Part shown: positions 6,700 through 51,553 of the stretch, in pieces | Layout of the letters: the number at the start of each line of letters is the position of its first letter | Position numbering within the stretch: position 1 is the stretch's first letter | From: Channa argus | Taxonomy: Eukaryota | NCBI RefSeq assembly: GCF_033026475.1 | Contig: NC_090211.1 | Location: forward strand, 3,977,726-4,041,725 | DNA: 64,000 bases | Direction of reading: 5' to 3' | Translations under genes and position numbers: made by a program | Notes under the pieces: generated by a model | Told to the model about the DNA's origin: nothing | Database searches by the model: none | What the model saw: the letters and a program-made list of their open reading frames with translations, nothing else

Positions 6700-7326
6700 C
6701 AATTTGACATTACACACAATTCTTAATGACACTATCTGCACACACTGTTGCTGATTTTGTGAAGGATATAAGAGGATATAAAAAGTGATGTTTCCCGTTT
6801 TGTAGCATCCCCTCTTCTTTTAACAACTGTCTGTAAATGTCTAGGAAGTGAGGAAACCAGTCTTCCCTGAAAGAGATATTGTCTGGATGGGAGCAAATGT
6901 TGTTCTAAAACCTCTTTGTACTTTTCAGCAGTGATGCTGCCTTTCCAGATGTGTAAGCTCCCCACACCATAGGCACTAATTCAACCCCACACCATCAGAG
7001 ATGCAGGCTTTTGAACTGTCCGCTGATAAGAAGCTGGATGGGCCCACTTCTCTTTAGTCCGCAGGACACAGCATCCATGGTTTCTACATTGATTTTTGGA
7101 AGTGTTCCTGAGCCCATGCAGTTATGTCCAGTAGAGAATCGGGCCTGTTTTTAATGCAGTGCTGCCTGAGGGCCTGAAGACCACCCACATCCAGTTTTGA
7201 CCTTCTGGCTTGTCCCTTGCCCACAGAGATTCCTCATTTGATGATGTTATATACTGTAGATGGTGGGATTATATTAAACATATTAAAGTCTTTTTTCTGA
7301 AATTGTTCCACTATTTTTAGATTCAG
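6700..7326 (-). mobile_element. Tc1/mariner (DD34E-type) element, 3' part with C-terminal transposase remnant, truncated or interrupted
   Basis: The minus-strand translation gives ...[50 protein letters not shown].... This matches the catalytic and C-terminal region of fish Tc1-like transposases (the MVWGC...HI..G.I.AE.Y..VLE.H.LPS motif block). There are stops and no intact ORF. Confidence 0.7.
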
Positions 7327-9340
7327 TTTCAATTCAATTCAATTCAATTCAATTCAACTTTATTTATATAGCGCCAATTCACAACAAAGTCATCTCAAGG
7401 TACTTTACAGAATAAAGTCAAGACTATAAAGATGTATGGAGAGAAACCAACAGTCCCCCCTTGAGCAAGCACTAGGCAACAGTGGAGAGGAAAAACTCCC
7501 TTTAATGGAAGAAACCTCCAGCAGAACCAGGCTCAGGGTGGACGGACATCTGCCTCGACCGGTTGGAGTGAGTGGAAAGTGAAGAGAGAAAAGAAAAGAG
7601 CAACAAGAAAACATCTGGCAGGTTGGTAGGGCCAGTAGCTGCAGCCCGGGGACACCAGCAGAAAGGGACAGAGAGAGGGAGACAGAGAAGGAGAAAGACA
7701 ACTACGGGAGAAAACACAGAGTTAATGACATACAGTGGTGACAATTGCGGGGTGAGAGGAGAGGCGAGAGGGTCAAGAGGAGAAAAGGAGCTCAGTGAAT
7801 TAGGGGGGTGGGTCCCCCAGCAGTATAAGCCTATAGCACCATGACTATAACTAACTATAAGCTTTATTGAAGCGGAAGATTTTAAGCCTAGACTTAAAAG
7901 TAGAGAGGTGTCTGCTTCCCGAATCTGAACTGGGAGCTGGTTCCACAGGAGAGGAGCTTGATAGCTAAAGGTTCTACCTCCCGTTCTATATTTGGACATT
8001 CTGGGAACCATAAGTAGGCCTGCATTCTGAGATCGAAGTTGTGTACTGGGATGATATGGTGCTATGAGGTCTTCTATATATGATGGAGCCTGACCATTCA
8101 GAGCTTTATATGTAAGAAGCAGGGTTTTAAATTCTATTCTAGATTTAATGGGAAGCCAATGGAGAGAAGCTAGTGAAGGTGAAATATGATCTCTCTTGCT
8201 AGTTCCAGTCAGCACTCTTGCTGCAGCATTTTGGATTAATTGAAGGCTCTTTAGTGAGTTACTGGGGCATCCTGAAAGTAGGGAATTACAGTAGTCCAAC
8301 CTAGAGGTAACAAATGCATGGACCAGTTTTTCGGCATCACTTTGAGACAGGATGCTCCTAATTTTGGCAATGTTCCGTAGGTGGAAGAAGGCTGTTTTAG
8401 AGATTTGTTTTATATGTGAGGTAAAGCACAAATCCTGGTCAAAAATAACTCCAAGGTTCCTCACCGCAGTACTGGAGGCCAGATTTATGCCATCTAGAGT
8501 AACAATATGGTTGAACATCATATTTCTGAGATTTTTGCGCCCAAATACTATGACTTTATGGCCTTTTAGGCCTTTATGTCTTGTAGGCTTGAAGCTTGAT
8601 TAACTGATTTTTTTCATCTGGTTCCATAGATAAATATAGCTGGGTATCATCAGCATAGCAGGGGAAATGTATGGAGTGATTTCTAATAATGTTGCCTAAA
8701 GGAGACATATATAAAGTAAAAAGTATTGGTCCTAACACTGAGCCTTGTGGAACTCCATAGCTAACCTTTGTGTGCATGGAGGATTATTCGTTAACATGAA
8801 CAAATTGAAATCTATCAGACAGATAAGATTTAAACCAACCTAGTGCAGTTCCTTTAATCCCAATTTCATGTTCCAGTCTCTGTAATAAAATGTTATGATC
8901 AATGGTATCAAATGCAGCACTAAGATCTAACGGAACAAGTATAGAGATGAGTCCATTATCTGAGGCCATGAGAAGATCGTTGGTGAATTTTATCAGTGCT
9001 GTTTCTGTACTATGATGAACTCTAAATCCTGACTGAAAGTCTTCATACAAATTATTCCTATGAAGGGGATCACATAATTGTTTTCTTTTTCAATTATTTT
9101 AGAAATAAAGGGGAGATTAGATATTGGTCTGTAATTGGCTAAAACATCTGGGTCAAGACAGGGTTTTTTAAGTAATGGTTTAATTACAGCTACCTTATAG
9201 GCCTGTGGTACATAGCTTGTTTCTAAAGATAGATTGATGATATCTAATATGAACGTATCTATTAAAGGTAAAGCTTCATTGAGCAGCTTAGTTGGAATAT
9301 GGTATTTTGTTGCAGATTGGTGAACCTCTGCCCATCTTTA
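7327..9340 (-). mobile_element. L2-like non-LTR retrotransposon (LINE) copy A. It is 5'-truncated with an RT plus C-terminal ORF2 remnant and a (GAATT)n 3' tail
   Basis: Minus-strand translations carry RT motifs: [101 protein letters not shown] and YADDTQLY. A long C-terminal ORF follows (ORF 7502..8521). The 3' end at 7330-7357 is (aattc)5 preceded by a ttatatag tail. The same tail occurs at 34.7 kb and 51.55 kb. Confidence 0.8.
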
Positions 9341-10029: not shown

Positions 10030-10330
10030 CATAAATGTCAGAGACTTGTCCCGATCCACTCCAGCATTGTCTTGGCTGTATGCTTCAGGTCATTGTCATG
10101 CTAAAAGGTGAACTGTCTTCCCAGTGTCAGATCCCATGTGCTTTGGAGCTTAGGTTCATCCTGTCTGTGTTACTCAGCAATGTCATAGCATGATGCTGCC
10201 ACCACTATGTTTCTGTTAGGAGGTGAGCAGTGCCCCATGTTCACCATACATAGTTCATAGTTCTTCTGCTAGAATTTCCAATCAGTTTATCAATTACAGG
10301 GTTCGTGGTTCACGTTTCCTCATGGCCTCA
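10030..10330 (-). mobile_element. Tc1-like transposase gene fragment (degenerate)
   Basis: The nucleotide pattern ...ccagcattgtcttggctgtatgcttcaggtcattgtcatgctaaaaggtgaac...catgatgctgccaccactatgtttc... is the antisense of the conserved Tc1/SB-type transposase core (MLPPP.HHAA...FQHDNDPKH...). I recognise it at nucleotide level from Sleeping-Beauty-like elements. Confidence 0.55.
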
Positions 10331-12979: not shown

Positions 12980-14911
12980 ACGGTCAGTTAAAGAGAGAAT
13001 CTGGCTGCCGCAGAGTCGCCTCCGATTCACATCACTCAGTAGAAATGTTGAATAGAAGTGTGTGACTGGCCATTCAGACAGGGCAGCACTATTGCAAGCC
13101 AGTGGGCTAGAAATGTACACTTGTATATCTGTATATTTGTAGTTTCCTATGTGTATTATCATGCAAACCAACCATTGCATATAATGCCCCTGATGGCCAC
13201 TAGATGGGGGCTACAAGAAAACAAGCTGAAATTATGTCAGTACGTGTATAAGACCATCAAAGAACATGGTCAGCAAGGTTTTGTTAAATGTAACATTACT
13301 TCATGATAATACCTGTTAGAACAAAATCAGAAATATGTTTATTGCCAAGAAGGCAAATTACCATGATAAGGAATTTCACATGGTGAATAAGTGCAAAAAC
13401 GTTTTAAATTTGTTTTTACACATTAGATGAACTTAAAATTATGAAAAGACAACTTTGTGTGTTAACCTTCAGCAAGTACAGTACCTATAACAAATAATTC
13501 TGTCCACACTTTGTGAGACGTAATTATTTGGGGTCTGGAAATTTAAAAAGGATTAGGCATAAGATGCATGACACACTACATTTTCATAGCTCACTGGCTT
13601 GTGATACAGTGATTTAGCTGCATTTTTGTTTTGTTTTTTGGTTTTTGCACAGGATAAAGAAAACAAATTTATTTTTGAAGAATAGTTCTGCTTTTCAGGA
13701 GAAGCAGCACAGATCACCCATTGAACCTCCACAGTATTTGCAATCCATGAGTGATGATGGATCCAGAATAACATTTACAGTCCGGCTTGCTCATCTCTCT
13801 CCTCCTGCTGAGCACCTTTAAAGCACTTGTTTTTTTTCTTACTAAGACACGATTAAGCAACAACACTGTTGCACCAACATCACTCATGTCTTTCTATTTA
13901 TTTATTTATTCATTTATTTTTATGTCTTTCTTACATTTTACATTGACGTAAATGATTGGAGAAACAGAGCAGCTGAGTCATATCTCAGCCTGTTAAAGTC
14001 TGTAACGCAGTGGTATCAGAATGTTTGTTACCATGTCCCCACAAGTTTTTAAACCTAATAAAGGAGACTAAACTTGCCCACACATTGTTGAGGATATGAC
14101 TTAAGACTCCATTTGTTTCCTTTGGCTTTGGAACAAAAGAAAAAATCCAAGTGTCTCTGCTGCAGTTGGAAAGGTTTTTATAATTTAAAGGCATCATCAT
14201 CATCCAAAAAACTGATTCAGAAATGTGAACTTTGAAGAAACCCGGACCCCCACTCAATGTGCACATGCAGGACACAGACTTGTAGAGACAAACCCACGAT
14301 GATGAATTGAAGTCTTGACATGTAGTTTGGACAGTGTTGATTTCTGGCTCTTGATATTACAGAAGTTAATGCTGTTTTTACCATCATCATTAATAAATTC
14401 AGTTTCTGTTCAGCTCATCACAGGTTCAGGTGGATTATTAATGCAGATGCTTTAAATGACTTTATCACAGACGCTCTATGACAGGAGATCTCGTCAGGAC
14501 ATTTTTTTTGTATTGTCTCAGAAGCACCAGACCATCCTAAAATATCCCACAGAGTTGCCACCTTCAGACAATTTGTACATTTTAGGATGATGTGTTATTA
14601 ACAGGTCAGTGTTTGTACATACAGTATAGTACTTACATACCTGTAGAGCTGCAAAATCATTTCTTTGTGATTTATGGATTTATTTCATCCAAATTTATGA
14701 CAATAGTTTTCCCAGAAGCCCCAAAACTAAAAAAGATATACATAAGTATAAAACAATACAAATCTTCATATTTGAGAAGCTTTAAACAGCAGATGTTTGG
14801 ATTTGACATATGACCACATGACTTTCACATGTTCAGAACTTTAAAATTATGTGCTTGCATATAGATTTATGAGACAAGACTGAACACAGCACCTTTTATA
14901 TGAAATCACCT

Positions 14912-16532
14912 AAGTTCTAGGTAAGCAAAAGTATTTCTTTTAAAGTAAATAAAACTTAATATTTGGCTGCAAATCCCTTGTTTTCATTCACTAAATCAAG
15001 CCTGTGAGTCACTTGTTGGTTTCTTTCTTTTGGGGCTTTCTCCCTTTAATCTCTCAGGGGAAATTCATGTTCAAATTCATGTTAAAGTCTAGTGAATGAC
15101 TCAGTCGGTCTAAAACAATTGACTTGTTTCCCTCGGATGAAGTCCTAGTTTTATTGTCTTGCTGCACGATGAAGCTTCTCCACCTTAGTTTTGCATTTCT
15201 CTGTATCTTTTGAGACAATATTTCAGTACATCTGAATTCATTCTGCTGCTACAAACACGAGTCATATTATAAATAAAGATTATGTCCAGAAGCAGCCATG
15301 CAGCAAATATGACACCTACCTACACTGAGCTTCACAGATGAGTATGCATCCTCACCAGATCTTTTCCTCCTCCACACTTTGGTTGATCTTGGTTTTATCA
15401 GGTCAAAAAACTTTGTTCCAGAACTTTTGTGGCTAATCTCTGTACTTTTGTGCAACTTCCAATTTAACTTTTTGATACTTATCACTGATCAGGTGTTTGC
15501 ATTTTGATGTGTGGGCTCTGTATTTCTGCTCATGATATTATCTTCAAATGGCGGATTGTGAAACCTTCATCCCCGCTCCGTGGAGGATGTTCAAGCAAAG
15601 CTTCTGTCATCAGCTGCTGTTGTTTTCCATTTCTGTGTATGTAGCTCAGAACACCAATGGTTTCTTCCTTTTTTTTTTAAATTGTTGTCCTGGCTGTGCT
15701 CAGTGTGTTTTGTAACATCTTAGTTTTTCCTTCTTCTTTTAGATTCAAAATAGCTTATGTTCCTCCAATTCACAAGTACCGCATCTTTGTGTTTTATCCG
15801 ATTGTTTATCCTAAAACCCAAGGCCAAATAAAGAGTGTGCTTTTAGAACTATTAATTATTAGACAGTCAGTGTCAGTGGACACAGCTATGCAACAAGGAC
15901 AACCTCAGTCACATGTTCCAGTGCTTTTGGTCTCTTAAAATACAAAAGGTAATCAACCTGGATGTAAATACAGTTATTTAAAACTGAAATAGTTGGTAAA
16001 TGTCACTGTACAGCAAACACAGATGAAGTGGCCTGACTATTTAATTTCCCTTTGAAGGCACTGTATTTGTTGTAGCTAACAAATAGTCTTGACTGGTTTA
16101 GAAAATGCAAAAACAACTGAATGTAGTCCTCTCAAGAGGTGAGGTAATGTTGGCTTAGTGTTTTGACAGCTGGAATTACAATACCTTTCCCTTTAACACA
16201 ATCATTGTCAGAAACTGTTGTAGAAGTGTAGGAACATTTCTGTGAGCATCACAAACAACCTGAAGTGAGTCCTTGTGTTATCAGAATTTAATCTTTGATG
16301 GTCTAATAAAGATGTGAAATTCTGGAAAAAAAGGAAGCCTGAAAACTTCTTTTCAGGATAAGGGATTCATTAAACCTGGTCTCTCCTGAGTCAGGATTTG
16401 GATAATGTACATGCAGTACACTATGTGCAAACAGAATTATAAGTATTTCAGTGACAGCAGAGTGGTGGTGTGAAAGTATGAAATGTACTTACACCAAAAG
16501 ATACATCATAATCCAAATAAGTGTATTCAGCG
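14912..16532. repeat. Duplicated segment, copy 1 (about 1.62 kb), containing a Tc1-like transposase remnant
   Basis: Near-identical to 18896-20344. For example, the block aagttctaggtaagcaaaagtatttcttttaaagtaaataaaacttaatatttggctgcaaatcccttg...gtgtattcagc occurs in both. Copy 1 has about 225 extra bp at 15790-16010 and lacks a 36-bp insertion present in copy 2. Confidence 0.85.
15267..15485 (-). pseudogene. Tc1-like transposase remnant inside duplicated segment (copy 1)
   Basis: The ORF ...STKVWRRKRSGEDAYSSVKLSVGRCHICCMAASG... aligns with the Tc1 block [35 protein letters not shown]. It is heavily degraded. Confidence 0.5.
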
Positions 16533-17067
16533 TTTGACTAAAACTGAAACTAGCACAAGATAACCTTTGATTACACGAGAACTGTTAAGTTAAATGACTA
16601 AATAAGGCAAAGAGCATATATGTGCGTTCTGGCTGCTGCATGTGTACAGATTTTACAGTAAGCAGGCTACTATAGTGCAAGGATTTCCTGTGTGACCTCA
16701 TTTCTTGAACACATGCAATTTGTGAAAAAGAGAGGTGAAGATCAGTTGAATATATAAAAAGCTGCAAACTGTTAGAGCAGGTTTAAATGCGTATCTCCTT
16801 TCTTAAATGGGCTGCAGCAATAATGAAGAGATGTTTTTGGTCACATCTCTCAGATCAGACAGTGCTAATTGTAAAAAACAAAAACAAAAAACTCAATAGT
16901 GAGTTGACAGAAATGTTGAGGTGCTGCTGAATCTTTGGTTTTCCCCAAACTAGACATACCATGGTGAAGTCACGCAGACTGACATTTCCTGCCCCGCTGA
17001 CAGGTGTGTCCGTGTGTGTGTGTGTGCGTGTTATCTGACACTGAGCAGAGACAGAGAAAGTGTGAAC

Positions 17068-17163
17068 ATGCTCAAGCTGTTGTCTTGTGGCTCTGCTCTG
17101 CTACCAAATGTGAACTTTGAAAACAAGAGAGAGAAAACTCAGGCTGCTGTTGCGATTATTGAC
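17068..17163 (+). other. Candidate orphan first coding exon (MLKLLSCGSALLPNVNFENKREKTQAAVAIID) ending in a consensus donor. It is of unknown affiliation and highly tentative
   Basis: An ATG opens 32 codons with a hydrophobic N-terminus, immediately followed by GAC|gtaagt (a perfect U1 donor consensus). I recognise no homology, and it sits in the unique spacer between the two duplicated segments. Confidence 0.15.
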
Positions 17164-18895
17164 GTAAGTAAAGGACGGTTAGGAGCCGAGCTGACGTTCT
17201 ACACATTTGTATGATCCCAATAAAACGGTGGGAGGAAAAAGTGCTGCAATACTATTAATAGAACAATACATTATTTATTTAGCTTTTTAAAAAATCTGTA
17301 CTTTAATTTAGAAATGTGTCGGCTCTCACCACTAGGAATATTTTCAGGCTGATTTGTAGAGTCTAGTGGGAAACTGTGCGAAACAGGAATAAGTGGTTCT
17401 CTGAACTGAAGCTGCACAAACCAAAGATTGTGTGGTTCATCTTTTCATTATCTTTACTTTGTATTAATGTGTTTTGGTTTGTTTTTTTTGCAAAAAAATA
17501 AAAATAAAAATAACAGCAATAGAATCCATTGATTTTACAAGTTAAATTCCGTCAAACTAAAAATACAAAAGAAAGGTGAAAATAACTTAAACTAATGCCA
17601 AAGACTGTAACATAAGGGTTGCTGTGCAAAATACCCTGGAATCCAGAGACTGTTGAGTCTGGATACTTTCAGTTATGACCCGTATATGATGTGGTCCGGG
17701 TTAAATATCATATCTGGAGAATAACTTGGACATAACTCTCTGGATTGGGACGACTTTGATATTAAGAAAATCTGGAGTTAAAATATTCCTTTTACTTGGC
17801 TCGTGGTATTTTGAATCCCACACACGGCATTTGTGTTGTCAAAATATTTCAAAACGTCTGACCTCATCTCTGTCAGTATCTGTGTGGTGTGACACGATCC
17901 ATTTCTGAGGAAGGATACTTGATATCAATAGCAATCACATGTCCGTGATTAAAGGATAACTTTTAGGCTGATGACTCATATTGTGAAACTATCAGATGTT
18001 CAGATTCAGACCACTTTGAACTACATGAACATTCACTAAAGACAATAAACAATATTTACTCTTTAACAGATTATTAAATACCCCTAACAGATGCTTCAAC
18101 ACTGCAGATCTTTTATTTTATCTTCTGCATCAGTACTTTTTCTAACAAACTGTTTCTTTGCTTCATGTATATTGTCCTGAAGTGATGATATGATGATCTG
18201 AGGCCAAAATCCGACAAAGTGGGATTAGTTACACTTACATTTGTTATTGTATATGATGATCAACTATTTGGACTGAGGGTTGAATAAAAGACACTGATGA
18301 GACAAAGGATCTAATTTACAATTTTCTAACATTTGATGGATAAACAGTTCAAAAAAAATAAAGTTGTAATGAATTGTTGCTGCCATTTCTGTCTAAAGAT
18401 GGAAACAATTAAGGCATTAAGCACTAATTCATTTATTACGAATTAGTGCAACGAATTCTATATTGCAATGACATGAACACAAAGTTTTATCCTGTGTAAG
18501 TGAATAGTGTGACAGTTTTATGAGCAGAACTAAAATAAAAGTTAATCAAAGGATATCTGATCATGATGACATCCGGTTCTAGGAAGTGGATGTTATCAGA
18601 AGTGACTGATGAGATGTCAAACGGAGTGGAGTGGGTCAAGTAAGTTCACTCAGTAATCTGACAAAATAACTAATGTGTAGGAACATGAACTTTGACATCT
18701 GGAATCAGATTTTTATTTAGTTTAAGATTTTTATTTCAAATTTTATTACAGTGAATTCAGAAAGTTTTTGGAACCTATTGTCTTTTGGTCAATTTTGTTA
18801 TGTTGCTGATAGTACAGTTGTTTGCATTATTTTTTCATTATTTCATTTTTCAACACTCAGTACCCCATAATGTAAAAGTAAAACCATCATTTTAT

Positions 18896-20344
18896 AAGTT
18901 CTAGGTAAGCAAAAGTATTTCTTTTAAAGTAAATAAAACTTAATATTTGGCTGCAAATCCCTTGTTTTCATTCACTAAATCAAGCCTGTGAGTCACTTGT
19001 TGGTTTCTTTCTTTTGGGGCTTTCTCCCTTTAATCTCTCAGGGGAAATTCATGTTCAAATTCATGTTAAAGTCTAGTGAATGACTCAGTCGGTCTAAAAC
19101 AATTGACTTGTTTCCCTCGGATGAAGTCCTAGTTTTATTGTCTTGCTGCACGATGAAGCTTCTCCACCTTAGTTTTGCATTTCTCTGTATCTTTTGAGAC
19201 AATATTTCAGTACATCTGAATTCATTCTGCTGCTACAAACACGAGTCATATTATAAATAAAGATTATGTCCAGAAGCAGCCATGCAGCAAATATGACACC
19301 TACCTACACTGAGCTTCACAGATGAATATGCATCCTCACCAGATCTTTTCCTCCTCCACACTTTGGTTGATCTTGGTTTTATCAGGTCATAAAACTTTGT
19401 TCCAGAACTTTTGTGGCCAATCTCTGTACTTTTGTGCAAAAATTGACTCTTTGATACTTATTGCTGATCAGGTGTTTGCATTTTGATGTGTGGGCTCTGT
19501 ATTTCTGCTCATGATATTATCTTCAAATGGCGGATTGTGAAACCTTCATCCCCGCTCCGTGGAGGATGTTCAAGCAAAGCTTCTGTCATCAGCTGCTGTT
19601 GTTTTCCATTTCTGTGTATGTAGCTCAGAACACCAATGGTTTCTTCCTTTTTTTTTTTGAATTGTTGTCCTGGCTGTGCTCAGTGTGTTTTGTAACATCT
19701 TAGTTTTTCCTTCTTCTTTTAGATTCAAAATAGCTTATGTTCCTCCAATTCACAAGTACCGCATCTTTGTGTTTTATCCGATTGTCTATCCTACAGCAAA
19801 CACAGATGAAGTGGCCTGACTATTTGAATTCCCTTTGAAGGCACTGTATTTGTTGTAGCTAACAAATAGTCTTGACTGGTTTAGAAAATGCATGACCTGC
19901 TGCAGTTGCACTGAAAATGTGCAAAAAACAACTGAATGTAGTCCTCTCAAGAGGTGAGGTAACGTTGGCTTAGTGTTTTGACAGCTGGAATTACAATACC
20001 TTTCCCTTTAACACAATCATCATCAGAAACTGTTGTAGAAGTGTAGGAACATTTCTGTGAGCATCACAAACAACCTGAAGTGAATCCTTGTGTTATCAGA
20101 ATTTAATCTTGATGGTCTAATAAAGATGTGAAATACTGAAAAAAAGGAAGCCTGAAAACTTCTTTTCAGGATAAGGGATTCATTAAACCTGGTCTCTCCT
20201 GAGTCAGGATTTGGATAATGTACATGCAGTACACTATGTTCAAACAGAATTATAAGTATTTCAGTGACAGCAGAGTGGTGGTGTGAAAGTATGAAATGTA
20301 CTTACACCAAAAGATACATCATATTCCAAATAAGTGTATTCAGC
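18896..20344. repeat. Duplicated segment, copy 2 (about 1.45 kb), bracketed by a ~48-bp direct repeat
   Basis: See copy 1. The motif cactcagtaccccataatgtaaaagtRaaaccatMattttataaRtt lies immediately left (18848-18895) and right (20345-20392) of copy 2. A Tc1 TIR-like stretch (aattcagaaagtttttggaacc...cttttggtcaattttgttatgttgc) sits at 18760-18830. Confidence 0.85.
19251..19439 (-). pseudogene. Tc1-like transposase remnant inside duplicated segment (copy 2)
   Basis: The ORF MHKSTEIGHKSSGTKFYDLIKPRSTKVWRRKRSGEDAYSSVKLSVGRCHICCMAASGHNLYL is the same degraded Tc1 block as at 15267-15485. Confidence 0.5.
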
Positions 20345-20540
20345 ACTCAGTACCCCATAATGTAAAAGTGAAACCATAATTTTATAAATTTCTGCAACTA
20401 TTTCTGCAGGTACTTTTAGTACTACTTCACTGCAATTATATTTTCTGATTGTAACCACATGTCTATGTAAAAGTAGCCTAAAGCTGTTGATGTTTAGGTC
20501 AGGTTGGATGCTGTGGATTAGGATCTCATAAGACTTTAAA

Positions 20541-20592
20541 CATTTAATAATAATAATAATTATAATAATAATTAATAATTATAATAATAATT
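20541..20592. repeat. (TAA)n/(TAATTA)n compound simple repeat
   Basis: Direct reading: taataataataattataataataattaataattataataataatt. Confidence 0.8.
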
Positions 20593-22263
20593 TTCAGTTG
20601 AGATGTTAAACAACATCTGATAAACAAAAATCACAACCTGTTGTTGTGAAGGTGCAGTTGTACTTTTGTTGCCAGTCACTAGGGGGCAGTATTCAACTAC
20701 ACTAAGGAGACCTGCAACATGAACACAACCCAAACTCTTGCCTCTTCGTTGCATTCCAAATTTATTGTTGCATTTTACATAAAACACCTGTTAGAAATGT
20801 AAGAACACCTGTAAAGCACAAAGATCCGTGTAAACAGCAGTTCAACAATACTGTATAGAAAGCCACATTCATACAGTCATTCGTGCAAAAGAGATGAACA
20901 ATAACACTGTAAACAGAGGCTTTTTTAACAGGAGCTGTACCTGAATATTTCATCATGTGTCACTTTAACATTTTAAGTTAGAAAACAGGCAGGGGGAGTA
21001 TAGAGATATAAAGAAGTATATCAACATATTGCATCATGCAACAACAAGGAAGAACAACTTTTATTGATATAACATCATCATCGTCATCATTCTCATCTTC
21101 ATCAGTCATGGCAGAAATAGGAGTTGATGTTTTCACAGTCTCTTTGAGGAGTGCAGTAGAAATGTTATCTATGTGTTATGGTGAATGACATGATCACAGA
21201 AATTCCCATAATATTAGGATTTCACCAATAAAACTGTTTAAAACAAAGAATGGAAGCTGTTGAAGGGTTATGGTATTTTACATAGGTTGATAGATATCTT
21301 TTCTCTAATCGTAGCCTAGCAACCGTAACCCATCACAGCAGGTGTATCGGTGTTTATTGTTGATGTAGACACAGTGTGAATTCGGCTGTAAGGAAGAGTT
21401 ACGCTCCATCTATTGTGTGTAAACTATTAGTTGGATTGATCCTCCCACCCACCACCTGACTACGAAACCCTGCTGCATCCAAATTTCCATAAAAAGATAA
21501 CTTTGGTCATTTTCTAAATTGAATGTATTTTCAACAATCACCTTCTTCACGAGATTTTTCGTCAGTCCTGTAGACATGCAAGAGCAATTAAAAGCACAAC
21601 GGCCTGACACATCGCTCCACTGAGTGACATGTTTCTTCATATTGACAGCTTCCTGCCAATGGTGGCAGTCTGCCTTGTTAGTCTGCAACAAGGTTCTGCT
21701 GAATTCGGTTAAACATTTTGTTATTCAGGAAAGTGAGGACAATACACTGTAAACATAACTAATAAAGTCTCAAAGCAAGAATTAGGCAAAAAAGACTCTC
21801 CAGGGCAGACGGGACATGGAAATTAGCTCATGAGACACCTTGGTGCAAATATCATTTGTAGCTACCGTAACTGATCAAATCCAGCTGGGCAGTACTTTGC
21901 CTGATTAATCATATTTTTTTTACTTCCTTGATACCGAAACACATTCTATCCCCTGTGTTGGTCATGGATCCTGCTGCACGTTTAGGCTTTAAAATGAGTC
22001 AGATACAGACGAGTGACAGACTAAACTGTGATCGGCTAAAAATCAGAAGTTACTTTTGTCTATTTCTGTGGGAAATCGATGACTCACTGCTTCAGTGGTT
22101 AATCTGCCACTGTTATTGTGAACTGTGTATGTGAATAAAGAAAAGAAAGTTGGAGCAAAAGTATGGATGCAGCTGTTACTCAAAGTTCAGTTACCAAGCT
22201 TACAGCATATTCTTGTCGATATGAAGTAGCTGATTTAAATCAGTGAACACGAAACTACTACTG

Positions 22264-32689: not shown

Positions 32690-34060
32690 AATAATTAGAA
32701 TATCTTCACAAAGTTGATGTATTTCACTAAGTGAAACTTGTATAATGTTTACATTCATTCCACACAGACTGATATATTTCAAGTGTTTATTTCTTATAAT
32801 TGTTATGATTACAACTGACAACTAATGAAAACCCCAAATCTGGAAAGTGTGAACATGAAAAGTATGCGCATGTACAACACTCAATACTTAGTTGGGCTCC
32901 TTTTGGCTGAAGTACTGGAGCAATGCGGCGTGGAGTCGATCAGTCTGTGGCACTGCTCAGGTGTTATGAGCCCAGGTTGCTCTGATAGTGGCCTTCAGCT
33001 CTTCTGCATTGTTGGGTCTGGCATATCGCATCTTCCTCTTCACAATGCCCCATAGATTTTCTATGGGGTTCAGGTCAGGCGAGTTTGCTGGTACTGGTAT
33101 ATTTGGCACTGTGTGCAGGTGCCGAGTCCTGTTGTGAAAATGAAATCTGCATCTCCACAAAGTTGGTCAGGAGCAGGAAGCATGAACTGCTCTAAAACGT
33201 CCTGGTACACAACTGCTTTGACCTTGGACCTCAGAAAATGGCACCAAACCATCACTGACTGTGGAAACTTTACACTGGACCTCAAGCAACGTGGATTCTG
33301 TGCCTCTCCTCTCTTCGTCCAGACTCTGGGAGCCTGATTCCCAAAGGAAATGCGAAATTTACTTTCATCAGAGAACATAACTTTGGACCTCTCAGCAGCA
33401 GTCCAGTCCTTTTTGTCTTTAGCCCAGGCGAGACGCTTCTGACACTGTCTGTTGTTCAAGAGTGGTTTGACACAAGGACTGCGACAGCTGAAACCTATGT
33501 CTTGTGCGTAGTGGTTCTTGAAGCACTGACTCCAGCTGCAGTCCACTCTGTGAATCTCCCTTACGTTTCGTTTCACAATTCCCTCCACGGTTGCTATTGC
33601 TTGTACACTTTTTTCTACCACATCTTTTCCTTCCCTTCGCCTCTCTATTAATGTGCTTGGACACAGAGCTCTGTGAACAGCCAGCCTCTTTTGCCACGAC
33701 CTTTTGTGTCTTGCCCTCCTTGTGCATGGTGTGAATGGTCGTCTTTTGGACAACTGTCAAATCAGCAGTCTTCCCCATGATTGTGTAGCCTACAGAACTA
33801 GACTGAGAGACCATTTAAAGGCCTTTGCAGGTGTTTTGAGTTAATTAGCTGATTAGAGTTTGGAAAAATCACAATATTTTATGTCGATCTGCTCTTTTGC
33901 CTTTGTGAGACTTTCCCAAAAATCTCCAGAGAGTTTCTCAGAACCCCTGCACGGACCAACTATGTCAAGAAGAGCCTTACTCCAAAACCAATTAATTAGA
34001 CCCCCTATAGAGCCTAAATCCTGCATGATATGGTCTCTTTAATTCAGTTCCTACCTTTAA
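32690..34060 (-). mobile_element. Tc1-like DNA transposon, near full-length (about 1.4 kb), with the transposase ORF broken into about 3 pieces (pseudogene)
   Basis: Minus ORFs 33419..33814 (MGKTADLTVVQKTTIHTMHKEGKTQKVVAKEAGCSQSSVSKHINR..., the HTH N-terminus), 33070..33753 (...WTAAERSKVMFSDESKFRISFGNQAPRVWTKRGEAQNPRCLRSSVKFPQSVMVW...) and 32957..33160 (...NSPDLNPIENLWGIVKRKMRYARPNNAEELKATIRATW) all match a fish Tc1 family transposase, including the DDE region. Frameshifts and an internal deletion (the GAMSSAGVGPL block is missing) make it non-functional. The ends are approximate. Confidence 0.85.
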
Positions 34061-50136: not shown

Positions 50137-51553
50137 AGGATTTAGAGTTCATCATAGTACAGAAACAGCACTGGTAAAAGTCACCAACGATCTTCTCATG
50201 GCCTCAGATAATGGACTCATCTCTATACTTGTCTGTTAGATCTTAGTGCTGCATTTGATACCATTGATCATAACATTTAATTACAGAGACTGGAACATGA
50301 AATTGGAATTAAAGGAACTGCACTAGGTTGGTTTAAATCTTATCTGTCTGATAGACTTTAATTTGTTCATGTTAACAAATAATCCTCCATGTGCACAAAG
50401 GGTAGCTATGGAGTTCCACAAGGCTCAGTGTTAGGACCAATACTTTTTACTTTATATATGTCTCCTTTAGGCAACATAATTAGAAATTTCCATTGCAATG
50501 CTAATGATACCCTACTATATTTATCAGTTAATCAAGCTTCAAGCATGATTACAAGACATAAAGGCCTAAAAGGCCATAAAGTCACAGTATTTGGTCCCAA
50601 AAATCTAAGAAATATGATGTCCAACCATATTGTTACTCTAGATGGCATAAATCTGGCCTCCAGTACTATTGCAAGGAACCTTGGAGTTATGTTTGATCAG
50701 AATTTGTCCTTTAACTCACAAATAAAACAAATCTCTAGAACAGCCTTCTTCCACCTACGGAACATTGGCAAAATTAGGAGCATCCTGTCTCAAAGTGATG
50801 CCGAAAAACTGGTCCATGCATTTGTTACCTCTAGGTTGGACTACTGTAATTCCCTACTTTCAGGATGCCCCAGTAGCTCCCTAAAGAGCCTGCAATTAAT
50901 CCAAAATGCTGCAGTGCTGACTGGAACTAGCAAGAGAGATCATATTTCACCTTCACTAGCTTCTCTCCATTGGCTTCCCATTAAACTTAGAATAGAAAGT
51001 AAAACCCTGCTTCTTACATATAAAGCTCTGAACGATCAGACTCCCTCATATATAGAAGATCTCATAGCACCATATCATCCCAGTAGACCACTTCGTTCTC
51101 AGAATGCAGACCTACTTGTGGTTCCCAGAATTTCCAAAGGTAGAATGGGAGGTAGAGCCTTTAGCTATCAAGCTCCTCTCCTGTGGAACCAGCTCCCAGT
51201 TCTGATTTTGGAAGCAGACACCCTCTCTACTTTTAAGTCTAGGCTCAAAACCTTCCTCTTTGATAAAGCTTATACTTAGTTATAGTTATGCTGCTATAGG
51301 CTTAGACTGCTGGGGGACCACCCTCCTCCTCTTGTCCCTCTCTCCTCTCTTCTCACCCCACAATTGTCACTACTGTATGACAGGTTTCTTCTATTAAAGG
51401 GAGTTTTTCCTCTCCACTGTTGCCTAGGGCTTGCTCAAGGGGGGATTGTTGGGTTCTCTCTATACATCTTTATAGTCTTGACTTTATTCTGTAAAGTGCC
51501 TTGAGATGACTTTGTTGTGTTTAGTCACTATATAAATAAAGTTGAATTGAATT
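50137..51553 (+). mobile_element. L2-like LINE copy B, 5'-truncated, with RT and ORF2 C-terminus plus tail
   Basis: Plus ORF 50389..51279 ([26 protein letters not shown]...[41 protein letters not shown]...[13 protein letters not shown]...) is about 90% identical to copy A. Upstream, the frame encodes [47 protein letters not shown]. The tail ends in gttgaattgaatt at 51541-51553. Confidence 0.85.

Follow-up and report, generated by a model that had tools for sequence, protein, structure and literature searches.

A Channa argus-specific duplication of a Tc1-containing segment into a second Tc1-like terminal repeat, with junctions suggestive of template switching

In the Channa argus lineage, a 1.62-kb slice of non-coding DNA comprising most of a degraded Tc1 element (T1) together with the adjoining 461 bp was copied and placed 2.36 kb downstream, in the same orientation. 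It landed within a terminal repeat belonging to another dead and unrelated Tc1-like element (T2), 40-52 bp of the target being doubled in the process, and this doubling is the "48-mer" that stands on either side of the new copy. The best explanation is probably a single microhomology-mediated template-switching event of the FoSTeS/MMBIR kind, involving two switches. The locus lies between genes, on the downstream side of one that is ZNF358-like, and was analysed within a window of 64 kb (the whole stretch of DNA), to which all C. argus coordinates refer; features lie on the plus strand except where stated.

The duplicated segment, S, is present in the 64-kb window as two copies in direct orientation and no others, copy 1 at 14911-16531 (1621 bp) and copy 2 at 18895-20344 (1450 bp). 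They match at 98.2% (92.3% when gaps are counted), with 19 substitutions over 1417 aligned bp (1.34%), one 5-bp indel, three 1-bp indels and two longer ones. The first of the longer indels, 197 bp at 15812-16008, is kept in copy 1 and missing from copy 2, with a 2-bp microhomology (TA) at the deletion ends, while the second, 32 bp at 19892-19923, is kept in copy 2 and missing from copy 1 and lies between GAAAATG direct repeats. The pair of near-identical direct segments described in the initial annotation is real, the indels being smaller than the sizes of about 225 and 36 bp given there, and the degraded Tc1 transposase block that it noted in both copies (KVWRRK...CMAASG) was found on the minus strand of each. 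The copies are not tandem as it had proposed, since the spacer separating them (16532-18746) is unique and collinear with C. striata, the gap from copy 1 to copy 2 amounting to 2363 bp of such unique, outgroup-collinear sequence. In this assembly the copies show no difference over their opening 431 bp, for which P is about 0.002 under uniform divergence. This implies that gene conversion took place afterwards or that rates were heterogeneous, and the dating of the event is complicated accordingly.

The orthologous locus of C. striata carries copy 1 only, contiguous with both flanks, and the alignment is unbroken through both copy-1 ends (C. striata 14873-16385 to C. argus 15877-17375). At the copy-2 position C. 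striata has 327 bp, compared with 1696 bp in C. argus, with nothing S-like there, and S occurs once in the 22-kb C. striata locus. Since C. striata has copy 1 only and an unoccupied copy-2 site, copy 1 is the ancestral donor, still in situ, and copy 2 is a young insertion that the C. argus lineage acquired on its own. The divergence between the copies is small beside the 23-25% found between the species (Jukes-Cantor ratio about 0.05). When polarised by the outgroup, the derived substitutions that followed the duplication number seven in copy 1 and six in copy 2, and the copy-specific deletions are of 197 bp and 5 bp in copy 2 and of 32 bp in copy 1. The 197-bp difference is a deletion in copy 2 because outgroup sequence (112 nt) occupies those columns; the outgroup has sequence in the columns of the 32-bp difference as well.

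An assembly error, such as an expanded or mis-joined repeat, had been named by the initial annotation itself as one outcome that would overturn its reading. The structure and its indels recur in another C. argus assembly, GCA_004786185.1, with 99.56% identity across 22 kb, and within 6.4 kb the two assemblies differ at 15 small sites. Because the structure is shared by this assembly, and because comparison with the outgroup shows derived substitutions and indels peculiar to each copy, an assembly error is excluded as the source of the duplication; we found nothing in support of an artefact, and its probability is practically negligible.

On its sequence, T1 (14741-16074, minus strand) can be assigned to Tc1 as a degraded, internally deleted element, collinear in its terminal inverted repeat (TIR), ORF and opposite TIR with an intact relative, L004, whose ORF of 345 aa encodes HTH_Tnp_Tc3_2 and DDE_3 domains. 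In blastn comparisons, C. argus positions 16074-15998 matched positions 1-80 of this element (E=2e-5), 15940-15009 matched 206-1293 (E=1e-82) and 15007-14808 matched 1364-1579 (E=4e-19), and the alignment of the T1 TIR to the intact relative spans 14741-14935 (z=13). The 5' terminus (TACAGTG, reverse-complemented) lies at 16060-16074 and the 3' terminus is projected near 14720. T1 has many stop codons, with the transposase stop codon at about 14956-14958, and is a heavily decayed relic, since its own translation remained below threshold in Pfam (E=0.059).

The ends of S do not coincide with those of T1. The left end falls within the T1 3' terminal repeat, so that T1 extends for 170 bp or more beyond S, and the right end lies 461 bp past the T1 5' terminus in non-Tc1 DNA. 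This flank (16075-16531, about 460 bp), duplicated along with T1, has a contiguous ortholog in C. striata and no similarity to L004 or to L005. The earlier label of a Tc1-derived segment is thus apt for about 72% of S and not for its last 461 bp. Furthermore, the left flank of copy 1, which had been read as a decayed 48-mer, belongs to the T1 terminal repeat, since both the E=4e-19 match and the z=13 alignment cross the boundary. Its local alignment score against the repeat (52 bp in the full form described below) was 8, equal to the shuffle mean and reached by 32% of random genomic 51-mers.

T2 is interrupted by copy 2. Its left part (18747-18900) begins with TA followed by CAGTGAATTCAGAAAG, holds the 48-mer and is ancestral, being also present in C. 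striata; its right part (20391-20500) is the same terminal repeat resuming after the insertion, with 20435-20495 collinear with C. striata. With the insertion site emptied, T2 aligns across it for 166 bp, starting from TACAGTG, to a TIR arm of another element, L027 (E=9e-18), and the C. striata ortholog of T2 also aligns to this arm. L027 is a Tc1 deletion derivative with arms 82% complementary over 180 bp and a remnant of the transposase C-terminus (tblastn E=0.003), and it has the 48-mer motif once per arm. The TA-flanked CAGTG terminus and the homology to the L027 arm identify T2 as a Tc1-type terminal repeat, which we take to be linked to salmonid-type Tc1, and place the insertion site about 150 bp inside it. 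The TIR-like stretch noted previously to the left of copy 2 was correctly recognised, and its start is set here at 18747 (TA-CAGTG...), but it belongs to another family than the transposase remnant enclosed in S, T2 having no significant similarity to the family of T1.

The direct repeat that brackets copy 2, reported at first as about 48 bp, extends over 52 bp, with 48 of 52 positions in agreement. Of the two target copies, the one upstream, repeat A (18849-18900), overlaps the start of S by its last 6 bp (TAAGTT, 18895-18900, the microhomology of junction 1), and the one downstream, repeat B (20339-20390), overlaps the end of S by its first 6 bp (TTCAGC, 20339-20344, the microhomology of junction 2), so that the unambiguously duplicated core is 40 bp (18855-18894, equivalent to 20345-20384). 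The 48-mer is T2 target DNA, normally single and doubled by the insertion. Since the motif is target DNA and the donor copy lacks it, the unit of duplication was not a motif together with a segment, as had been suggested.

That S contains Tc1-derived sequence, and that its new copy stands between direct repeats and next to a Tc1-type terminal repeat, might suggest a non-autonomous, MITE-like element, derived from Tc1/mariner or otherwise, which left the site of copy 1 for that of copy 2. However, no terminal inverted repeats mark the ends of S, which lie inside the T1 TIR on the left and 461 bp past T1 on the right, no other copy is present in the 64-kb window, and the adjoining T2 repeat is of another family and forms part of the target, not of the copied unit. 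The target-site duplication of Tc1 is TA, whereas the repeat here is of 52 bp with a 40-bp core; the initial annotation was right that it is much too long for a transposase target-site duplication and that the copy arose by local duplication. Exact-ORF look-ups found nothing. The defined termini that would mark an ordinary transposon are missing, as the ends of S are not element ends, and the reading of S as a mobile element is largely refuted, being extremely improbable. Tc1/mariner transposition of S was rejected on the same grounds. We also considered a LINE-mediated retrocopy, which would be recognised by a tail at the 3' end, either poly(A) or from the element, and by a target duplication of only about 5-20 bp, and rejected it, as S has no A- or T-run at its ends on either strand and the repeat is of 40-52 bp.

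Both novel junctions show short microhomology. At junction 1 the sequences are TAAGTT and TAAATT and at junction 2 TTCAGC and TTCAAC, each a match at 5 of 6 positions. Pairs of positions drawn at random from this window match as well with a probability of about 0.0066 per junction, or about 4e-5 for the two together. At each junction the mismatched base is, in the junction copy, that of the donor, and this explains two of the four differences between repeats A and B (18853 and 18898), which fall in the microhomologies. The other two lie in the 40-bp core and fit the 1.34% divergence (P = 0.124, computed for a 43-bp core). The microhomologies are imperfect as they stand, their length depending on whether the mismatches predate the event. 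Local copies in the same orientation a few kb apart are also what tandem segmental duplication by NAHR produces, and unequal exchange had been proposed at the outset. NAHR in its classical form is nevertheless unsupported, since the copies are not head-to-tail adjacent but separated by the 2363-bp unique spacer, and the breakpoints share no usable homology (at most 5-6 bp, with none extended).

From the anatomy of the junctions alone we infer the mechanism, including its dependence on replication. A nascent strand copying T2 would have halted at about 18897-18900, disengaged and found a new template 3984 bp back, annealing there through the microhomology TAAGTT/TAAATT (14911-14916). It would then have copied 14911-16531, disengaged a second time and re-annealed at the microhomology TTCAGC/TTCAAC (18849-18854). 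Since this return point lies 46 bp behind the original departure, the intervening bases would have been copied twice. Each copy later gathered its own mutations, six to seven substitutions apiece and the deletions; the TA-flanked loss of 197 bp from copy 2 is a candidate for a third switch or for a later deletion. In the FoSTeS/MMBIR model, a microhomology junction leads into sequence that was copied at another site, and a return behind the point of collapse yields a duplication (Hastings et al. 2009, PMC2621351). The C. argus locus has microhomology at both novel junctions without extended breakpoint homology, a donor in cis that lies 3984 bp upstream and is oriented alike, and a small target duplication of 40-52 bp, and the replication-slippage type of mechanism first envisaged fits. 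It is distinctive in being small (1.6 kb), simple, made with two switches, evolutionarily fixed and in intergenic DNA of a fish, is no disease or cancer CNV, and its imperfect 6-mers contrast with the perfect 2-5 bp usually quoted.

The present sequence fits equally well with two successive events, namely a tandem duplication in which 14911-18894/18900 (3984 bp) was repeated and joined at TAAGTT/TAAATT, and a later 2316-bp deletion between TTCAGC and TTCAAC. Such a deletion removes the second spacer copy and the outer T2 and yields the exact present structure, including the second 48-mer, and microhomology-flanked deletions do occur at the locus (197 bp flanked by TA and 32 bp flanked by GAAAATG). 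However, this requires two independent rearrangements whose breakpoints happened to leave a neat insertion, the tandem intermediate is present in neither of the two C. argus assemblies, and if the first step was unequal crossing-over it would have had to proceed between T1 and T2, which are without significant similarity. We regard this history as unlikely. It is the one nearest to the "tandem duplication of a unit" of the initial annotation.

Less likely again is a two-ended break in T2, with staggered ends of 40-50 nt filled in and a copy of S captured between them. The captured copy could have been made from the nearby donor (by SDSA or by synthesis-dependent end joining of the polymerase-theta type) or could have been a free fragment. 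Fill-in with microhomology-primed synthesis also predicts microhomology at both junctions and a target duplication. Against this, an unusually long stagger is demanded and we know of no nuclease that cuts at the T2 break site. Inserts made by synthesis-dependent MMEJ and polymerase theta are typically much shorter than the 1.6 kb seen here, the templated insertions of polymerase theta being of tens of bp. Templated insertions at breaks are documented, for example in PMC2943611 and PMC7165422, and a pathway in which microhomology primes the copying of neighbouring sequence into the junction under repair resembles our case, which differs in having a 40-52-bp target duplication.

As to the initiating lesion, it may not have been random. 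Given the position of the insertion about 150 bp inside a Tc1-type terminal repeat, residual Tc1 transposase activity may have broken or nicked the inner T2 terminal repeat, with repair copying the nearest Tc1-containing region, although we consider this highly improbable. If so, the terminal repeats of old Tc1 elements would act as hotspots for the seeding of small local segmental duplications.

The duplicated region has no conserved ORF or known RNA, and the duplication, without evident function, is an ordinary neutral structural mutation. Its significance is modest. It is a cleanly polarised example, from a teleost, of a microhomology-mediated dispersed duplication, with the donor, the target, the empty site and both junctions resolved, and illustrates how low-copy repeats of recent origin can be put together from arbitrary pieces of old transposons and their flanks. 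The insertion also poses a risk for annotation, since a T2 repeat adjoining a transposase remnant of the T1 family may pass for an odd Tc1 or for a new composite family.

The segment S is present twice in direct orientation, as copy 1 at 14911-16531 (1621 bp) and copy 2 at 18895-20344 (1450 bp). Reading of the region, repeat finding, global alignment and a self-BLAST (14-21 kb against all 64 kb) bear out the two direct copies reported in the initial annotation, and there is no third copy within the 64-kb window. Between the two copies there are 19 substitutions over 1417 aligned positions (1.34%). Copy 2 lacks a 197-bp stretch corresponding to copy-1 positions 15812-16008, the placement of which is ambiguous by a shared TA, as well as a 5-bp stretch held by copy 1, and copy 1 lacks a 32-bp stretch found at 19892-19923 in copy 2; there are three 1-bp indels besides. 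The initial coordinates hold, but the indel sizes given with them (about 225 and 36 bp) were somewhat off. The direct repeat described as bracketing copy 2 is also real, extending over 52 bp (18849-18900 and 20339-20390) with 48 of 52 positions identical. Over their first 431 bp (14911-15341 and 18895-19325) the two copies are identical in this assembly, where six differences would be expected at the overall divergence (Poisson P about 0.002). It is possible that this reflects gene conversion after the duplication, or rate heterogeneity; two SNPs in that stretch (14960 and 14975) are private to copy 1 of the other C. argus assembly.

This second C. argus assembly contains the locus (L001) at GCA_004786185.1, CM015726.1:3936473-3958795, which is 99.56% identical to window positions 678-22977. 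Both copies of S are present there, their indels and the flanking repeat unchanged, and just 15 small sites differ between the two assemblies over 14300-20700. It is therefore essentially excluded that copy 2 is an artefact of one assembly, and we regard the likelihood of this explanation as negligible. A (GT)n microsatellite at about 17003-17030 differs in length by 6 bp between the assemblies.

The orthologous locus of Channa striata (L002, GCA_033026295.1) is collinear with the window over the whole interval and contains a single S-like sequence, located at the copy-1 position. Since one alignment block (C. striata 14873-16385 to C. argus 15877-17375) spans the right end of copy 1 and continues unbroken into the spacer, and the left flank of copy 1 is likewise orthologous, copy 1 is the ancestral one and is in situ. 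At the copy-2 position there is nothing S-like in C. striata, where 327 bp lie between the anchors at 17991 and 18318 as against 1696 bp in C. argus. An old duplication later lost in C. striata can be ruled out, since the C. striata ortholog is 23-25% divergent from either copy whereas the copies are only 1.34% divergent from each other. The Jukes-Cantor ratio (copy-copy versus C. argus-C. striata) is about 0.05, which dates the duplication to about the most recent twentieth of the period since these species diverged. When polarised, seven substitutions are derived in copy 1 and six in copy 2, while three are ambiguous and three have no outgroup base. The outgroup carries sequence at the 197-bp, 5-bp and 32-bp gaps, so that copy 2 has lost the 197-bp and 5-bp stretches and copy 1 the 32-bp stretch, and with the copy-specific derived substitutions this means that each copy has had a separate history since the duplication. 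Changes are clustered at 15456-15485 and 19440-19464, where a 5-bp deletion and five substitutions fall within about 30 bp; derived states occur in copy 1 and copy 2 alike, suggesting a local mutational hotspot. About 480 bp of the C. striata locus (16978-17458) have no counterpart in C. argus at about 18020, and were either gained in C. striata or deleted in C. argus.

Most of S is derived from T1, a Tc1 relic on the minus strand whose transposase is heavily decayed and interrupted by numerous frameshifts and stop codons. Pfam recognised only HTH_Tnp_Tc3_2 in its stitched translation, below threshold (E=0.059). A protein search with this translation gave a single match (P0121, on a truncated copy), and a second search seeded with P0121 reached intact relatives. 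Within the window, alignments of putative TIR pieces (L2 against the reverse complement of the 5' end of T1, L1 against the same, and R2 against the start of S) gave nothing significant, with z between -2 and 2.8, so that the boundaries of the element could not be settled in that way and external intact relatives were needed. The relative L004 has long terminal inverted repeats and a 345-aa ORF (P0123) with HTH_Tnp_Tc3_2 and DDE_3 domains; L005, an intact Collichthys element, is more distantly related, too far removed to fix the ends of T1. The 1680-bp L004 element was reconstructed and the reverse complement of the window aligned against it, giving collinear matches of window 16074-15998 to element positions 1-80 (E=2e-5), 15940-15009 to 206-1293 (E=1e-82) and 15007-14808 to 1364-1579 (E=4e-19). 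The last of these runs unbroken over the left boundary of S (14910/14911), and direct alignment of 14741-14935 with the L004 terminal repeat gave z=13. Together these matches place T1 at about 14720/14741 to 16066-16074. S begins within the 3' terminal repeat of T1, leaving at least 170 bp of the relic outside, and ends 461 bp past its 5' terminus, in sequence that is not Tc1-derived and has a contiguous ortholog in C. striata; about 72% of S is Tc1-derived. Judged by these limits, S is an arbitrary slice of the chromosome rather than a unit defined by a transposon. Its transposition is essentially excluded and we consider it very improbable. A retrocopy is ruled out, there being no tail, and an eccDNA or Helitron-type capture was likewise rejected for want of any supporting feature.

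A second and older Tc1-like terminal repeat, T2, was the target that now holds copy 2. A motif scan of metagenome contigs listed loci that are nearly all chance matches, the only relevant element among them being L027, a Tc1 deletion derivative bounded by 180-bp arms (82% complementary) and retaining a C-terminal transposase remnant (tblastn E=0.003). The motif, the 48-mer flanking copy 2, occurs once per L027 arm. When an emptied site was built by joining window 18745-18900 directly to 20391-20520, its match to one L027 arm started at the terminal TACAGTG, took in the 48-mer and continued over the join (166 bp, E=9e-18), and the C. striata ortholog matches the same arm on either side of the site without S. 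These matches show that the 48-mer is a normal, single-copy part of T2; the second 48-mer arose together with the insertion of copy 2. The left flank of copy 1 had been read as a decayed 48-mer, but it scores no better than the shuffle mean, a level reached by 32% of genomic 51-mers; it is instead T1's own repeat, aligning to the L004 TIR. Sequence left of copy 2 (from TA/CAGTG at 18747) has no significant similarity to the family of T1. For these two reasons we rejected the idea that T1 and T2 are homeologous copies of one family, with junction 1 at homologous positions implying homeologous recombination.

At junction 1 (microhomologies between hyphens) the donor ...ATCACC-TAAGTT-CTAGG and the undisturbed target ...ATTTTA-TAAATT-TCTGC gave the product ...ATTTTA-TAAGTT-CTAGG, and at junction 2 the donor ...GTGTA-TTCAGC-GTTTG and target ...CATTT-TTCAAC-ACTCAG gave ...GTGTA-TTCAGC-ACTCAG. 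Each match is 5/6; random position pairs in the window match this well with a probability of about 0.0066, or about 4e-5 for both junctions. The product has the donor base at each mismatch, which accounts for the differences at 18853 and 18898; the 52-bp repeats differ at two further positions, 18880 and 18888, which fall in the 40-bp unambiguous core and are compatible with the divergence of S (P=0.124, computed for a 43-bp core). In C. striata about 12 bp survive from the 48-mer region of T2 (L002 about 18076-18088) compared with about 51 bp in the family (L027 1133-1184). Most of it appears to have been deleted there, so the outgroup provides no ancestral bases at the two junction mismatches.

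Copy 2 is a duplicative insertion in the same orientation as its donor 3984 bp upstream, with microhomology at both junctions and a 40-52-bp target duplication. Its structure matches the published description of MMBIR/FoSTeS, in which microhomology junctions precede sequence from elsewhere and return behind the collapse point yields a duplication (PMC2621351). Copy 2 probably arose in a single replication-associated event involving two template switches. The nascent strand would have departed T2 near 18897-18900, primed at 14911-16, copied on to 16531 and re-entered at 18849-54, 46 bp behind the point of departure. The same end product would be given by a tandem duplication of 3984 bp and a subsequent 2316-bp deletion, a two-step history that we consider unlikely, and by capture at a long-staggered two-ended break, which seems more doubtful still. 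The unequal exchange proposed initially is not supported in its classical form, since there is no homology between the breakpoints.

S lies in an intergenic region, with a ZNF358-like gene on one side (10.6-13.0 kb; its zinc-finger protein matches P0001, 'Zinc finger protein 358 [Channa argus]', at 100% identity) and, judging from C. striata, a C2-domain gene further downstream. The candidate orphan exon proposed in the spacer at 17068-17163 (MLKLLSCG..., then GTAAGT) lacks conservation in the C. striata alignment (L002 about 16088-16190), which has GTG for the ATG, a 12-bp gap and AGGAGT at the position of the GTAAGT donor; a conserved exon is unlikely here. Scans of 14-21 kb found no Rfam family, no tRNA and, among tandem repeats, nothing notable, the only run being (TAA)n at 20545-20591. 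Exact-match look-ups of the junction-spanning ORF and of the ORF common to both copies found no record. Elsewhere in the window, long ORFs at 7502-8521 (minus strand) and 50389-51279 (plus strand) look like the reverse-transcriptase C-terminal region of a LINE-type element, the surrounding DNA being about 89% identical between the sites, and Tc1/mariner transposase remnants of other families lie on the minus strand at 32969-33814 (with ORFs of 227 and 131 aa remaining), about 10053-10212 and about 6822-7004. Nothing suggests any functional consequence of the duplication. Copy 2 is a genuine local duplication, young and specific to its lineage, and belongs to a known mechanistic class; it is well resolved but ordinary.
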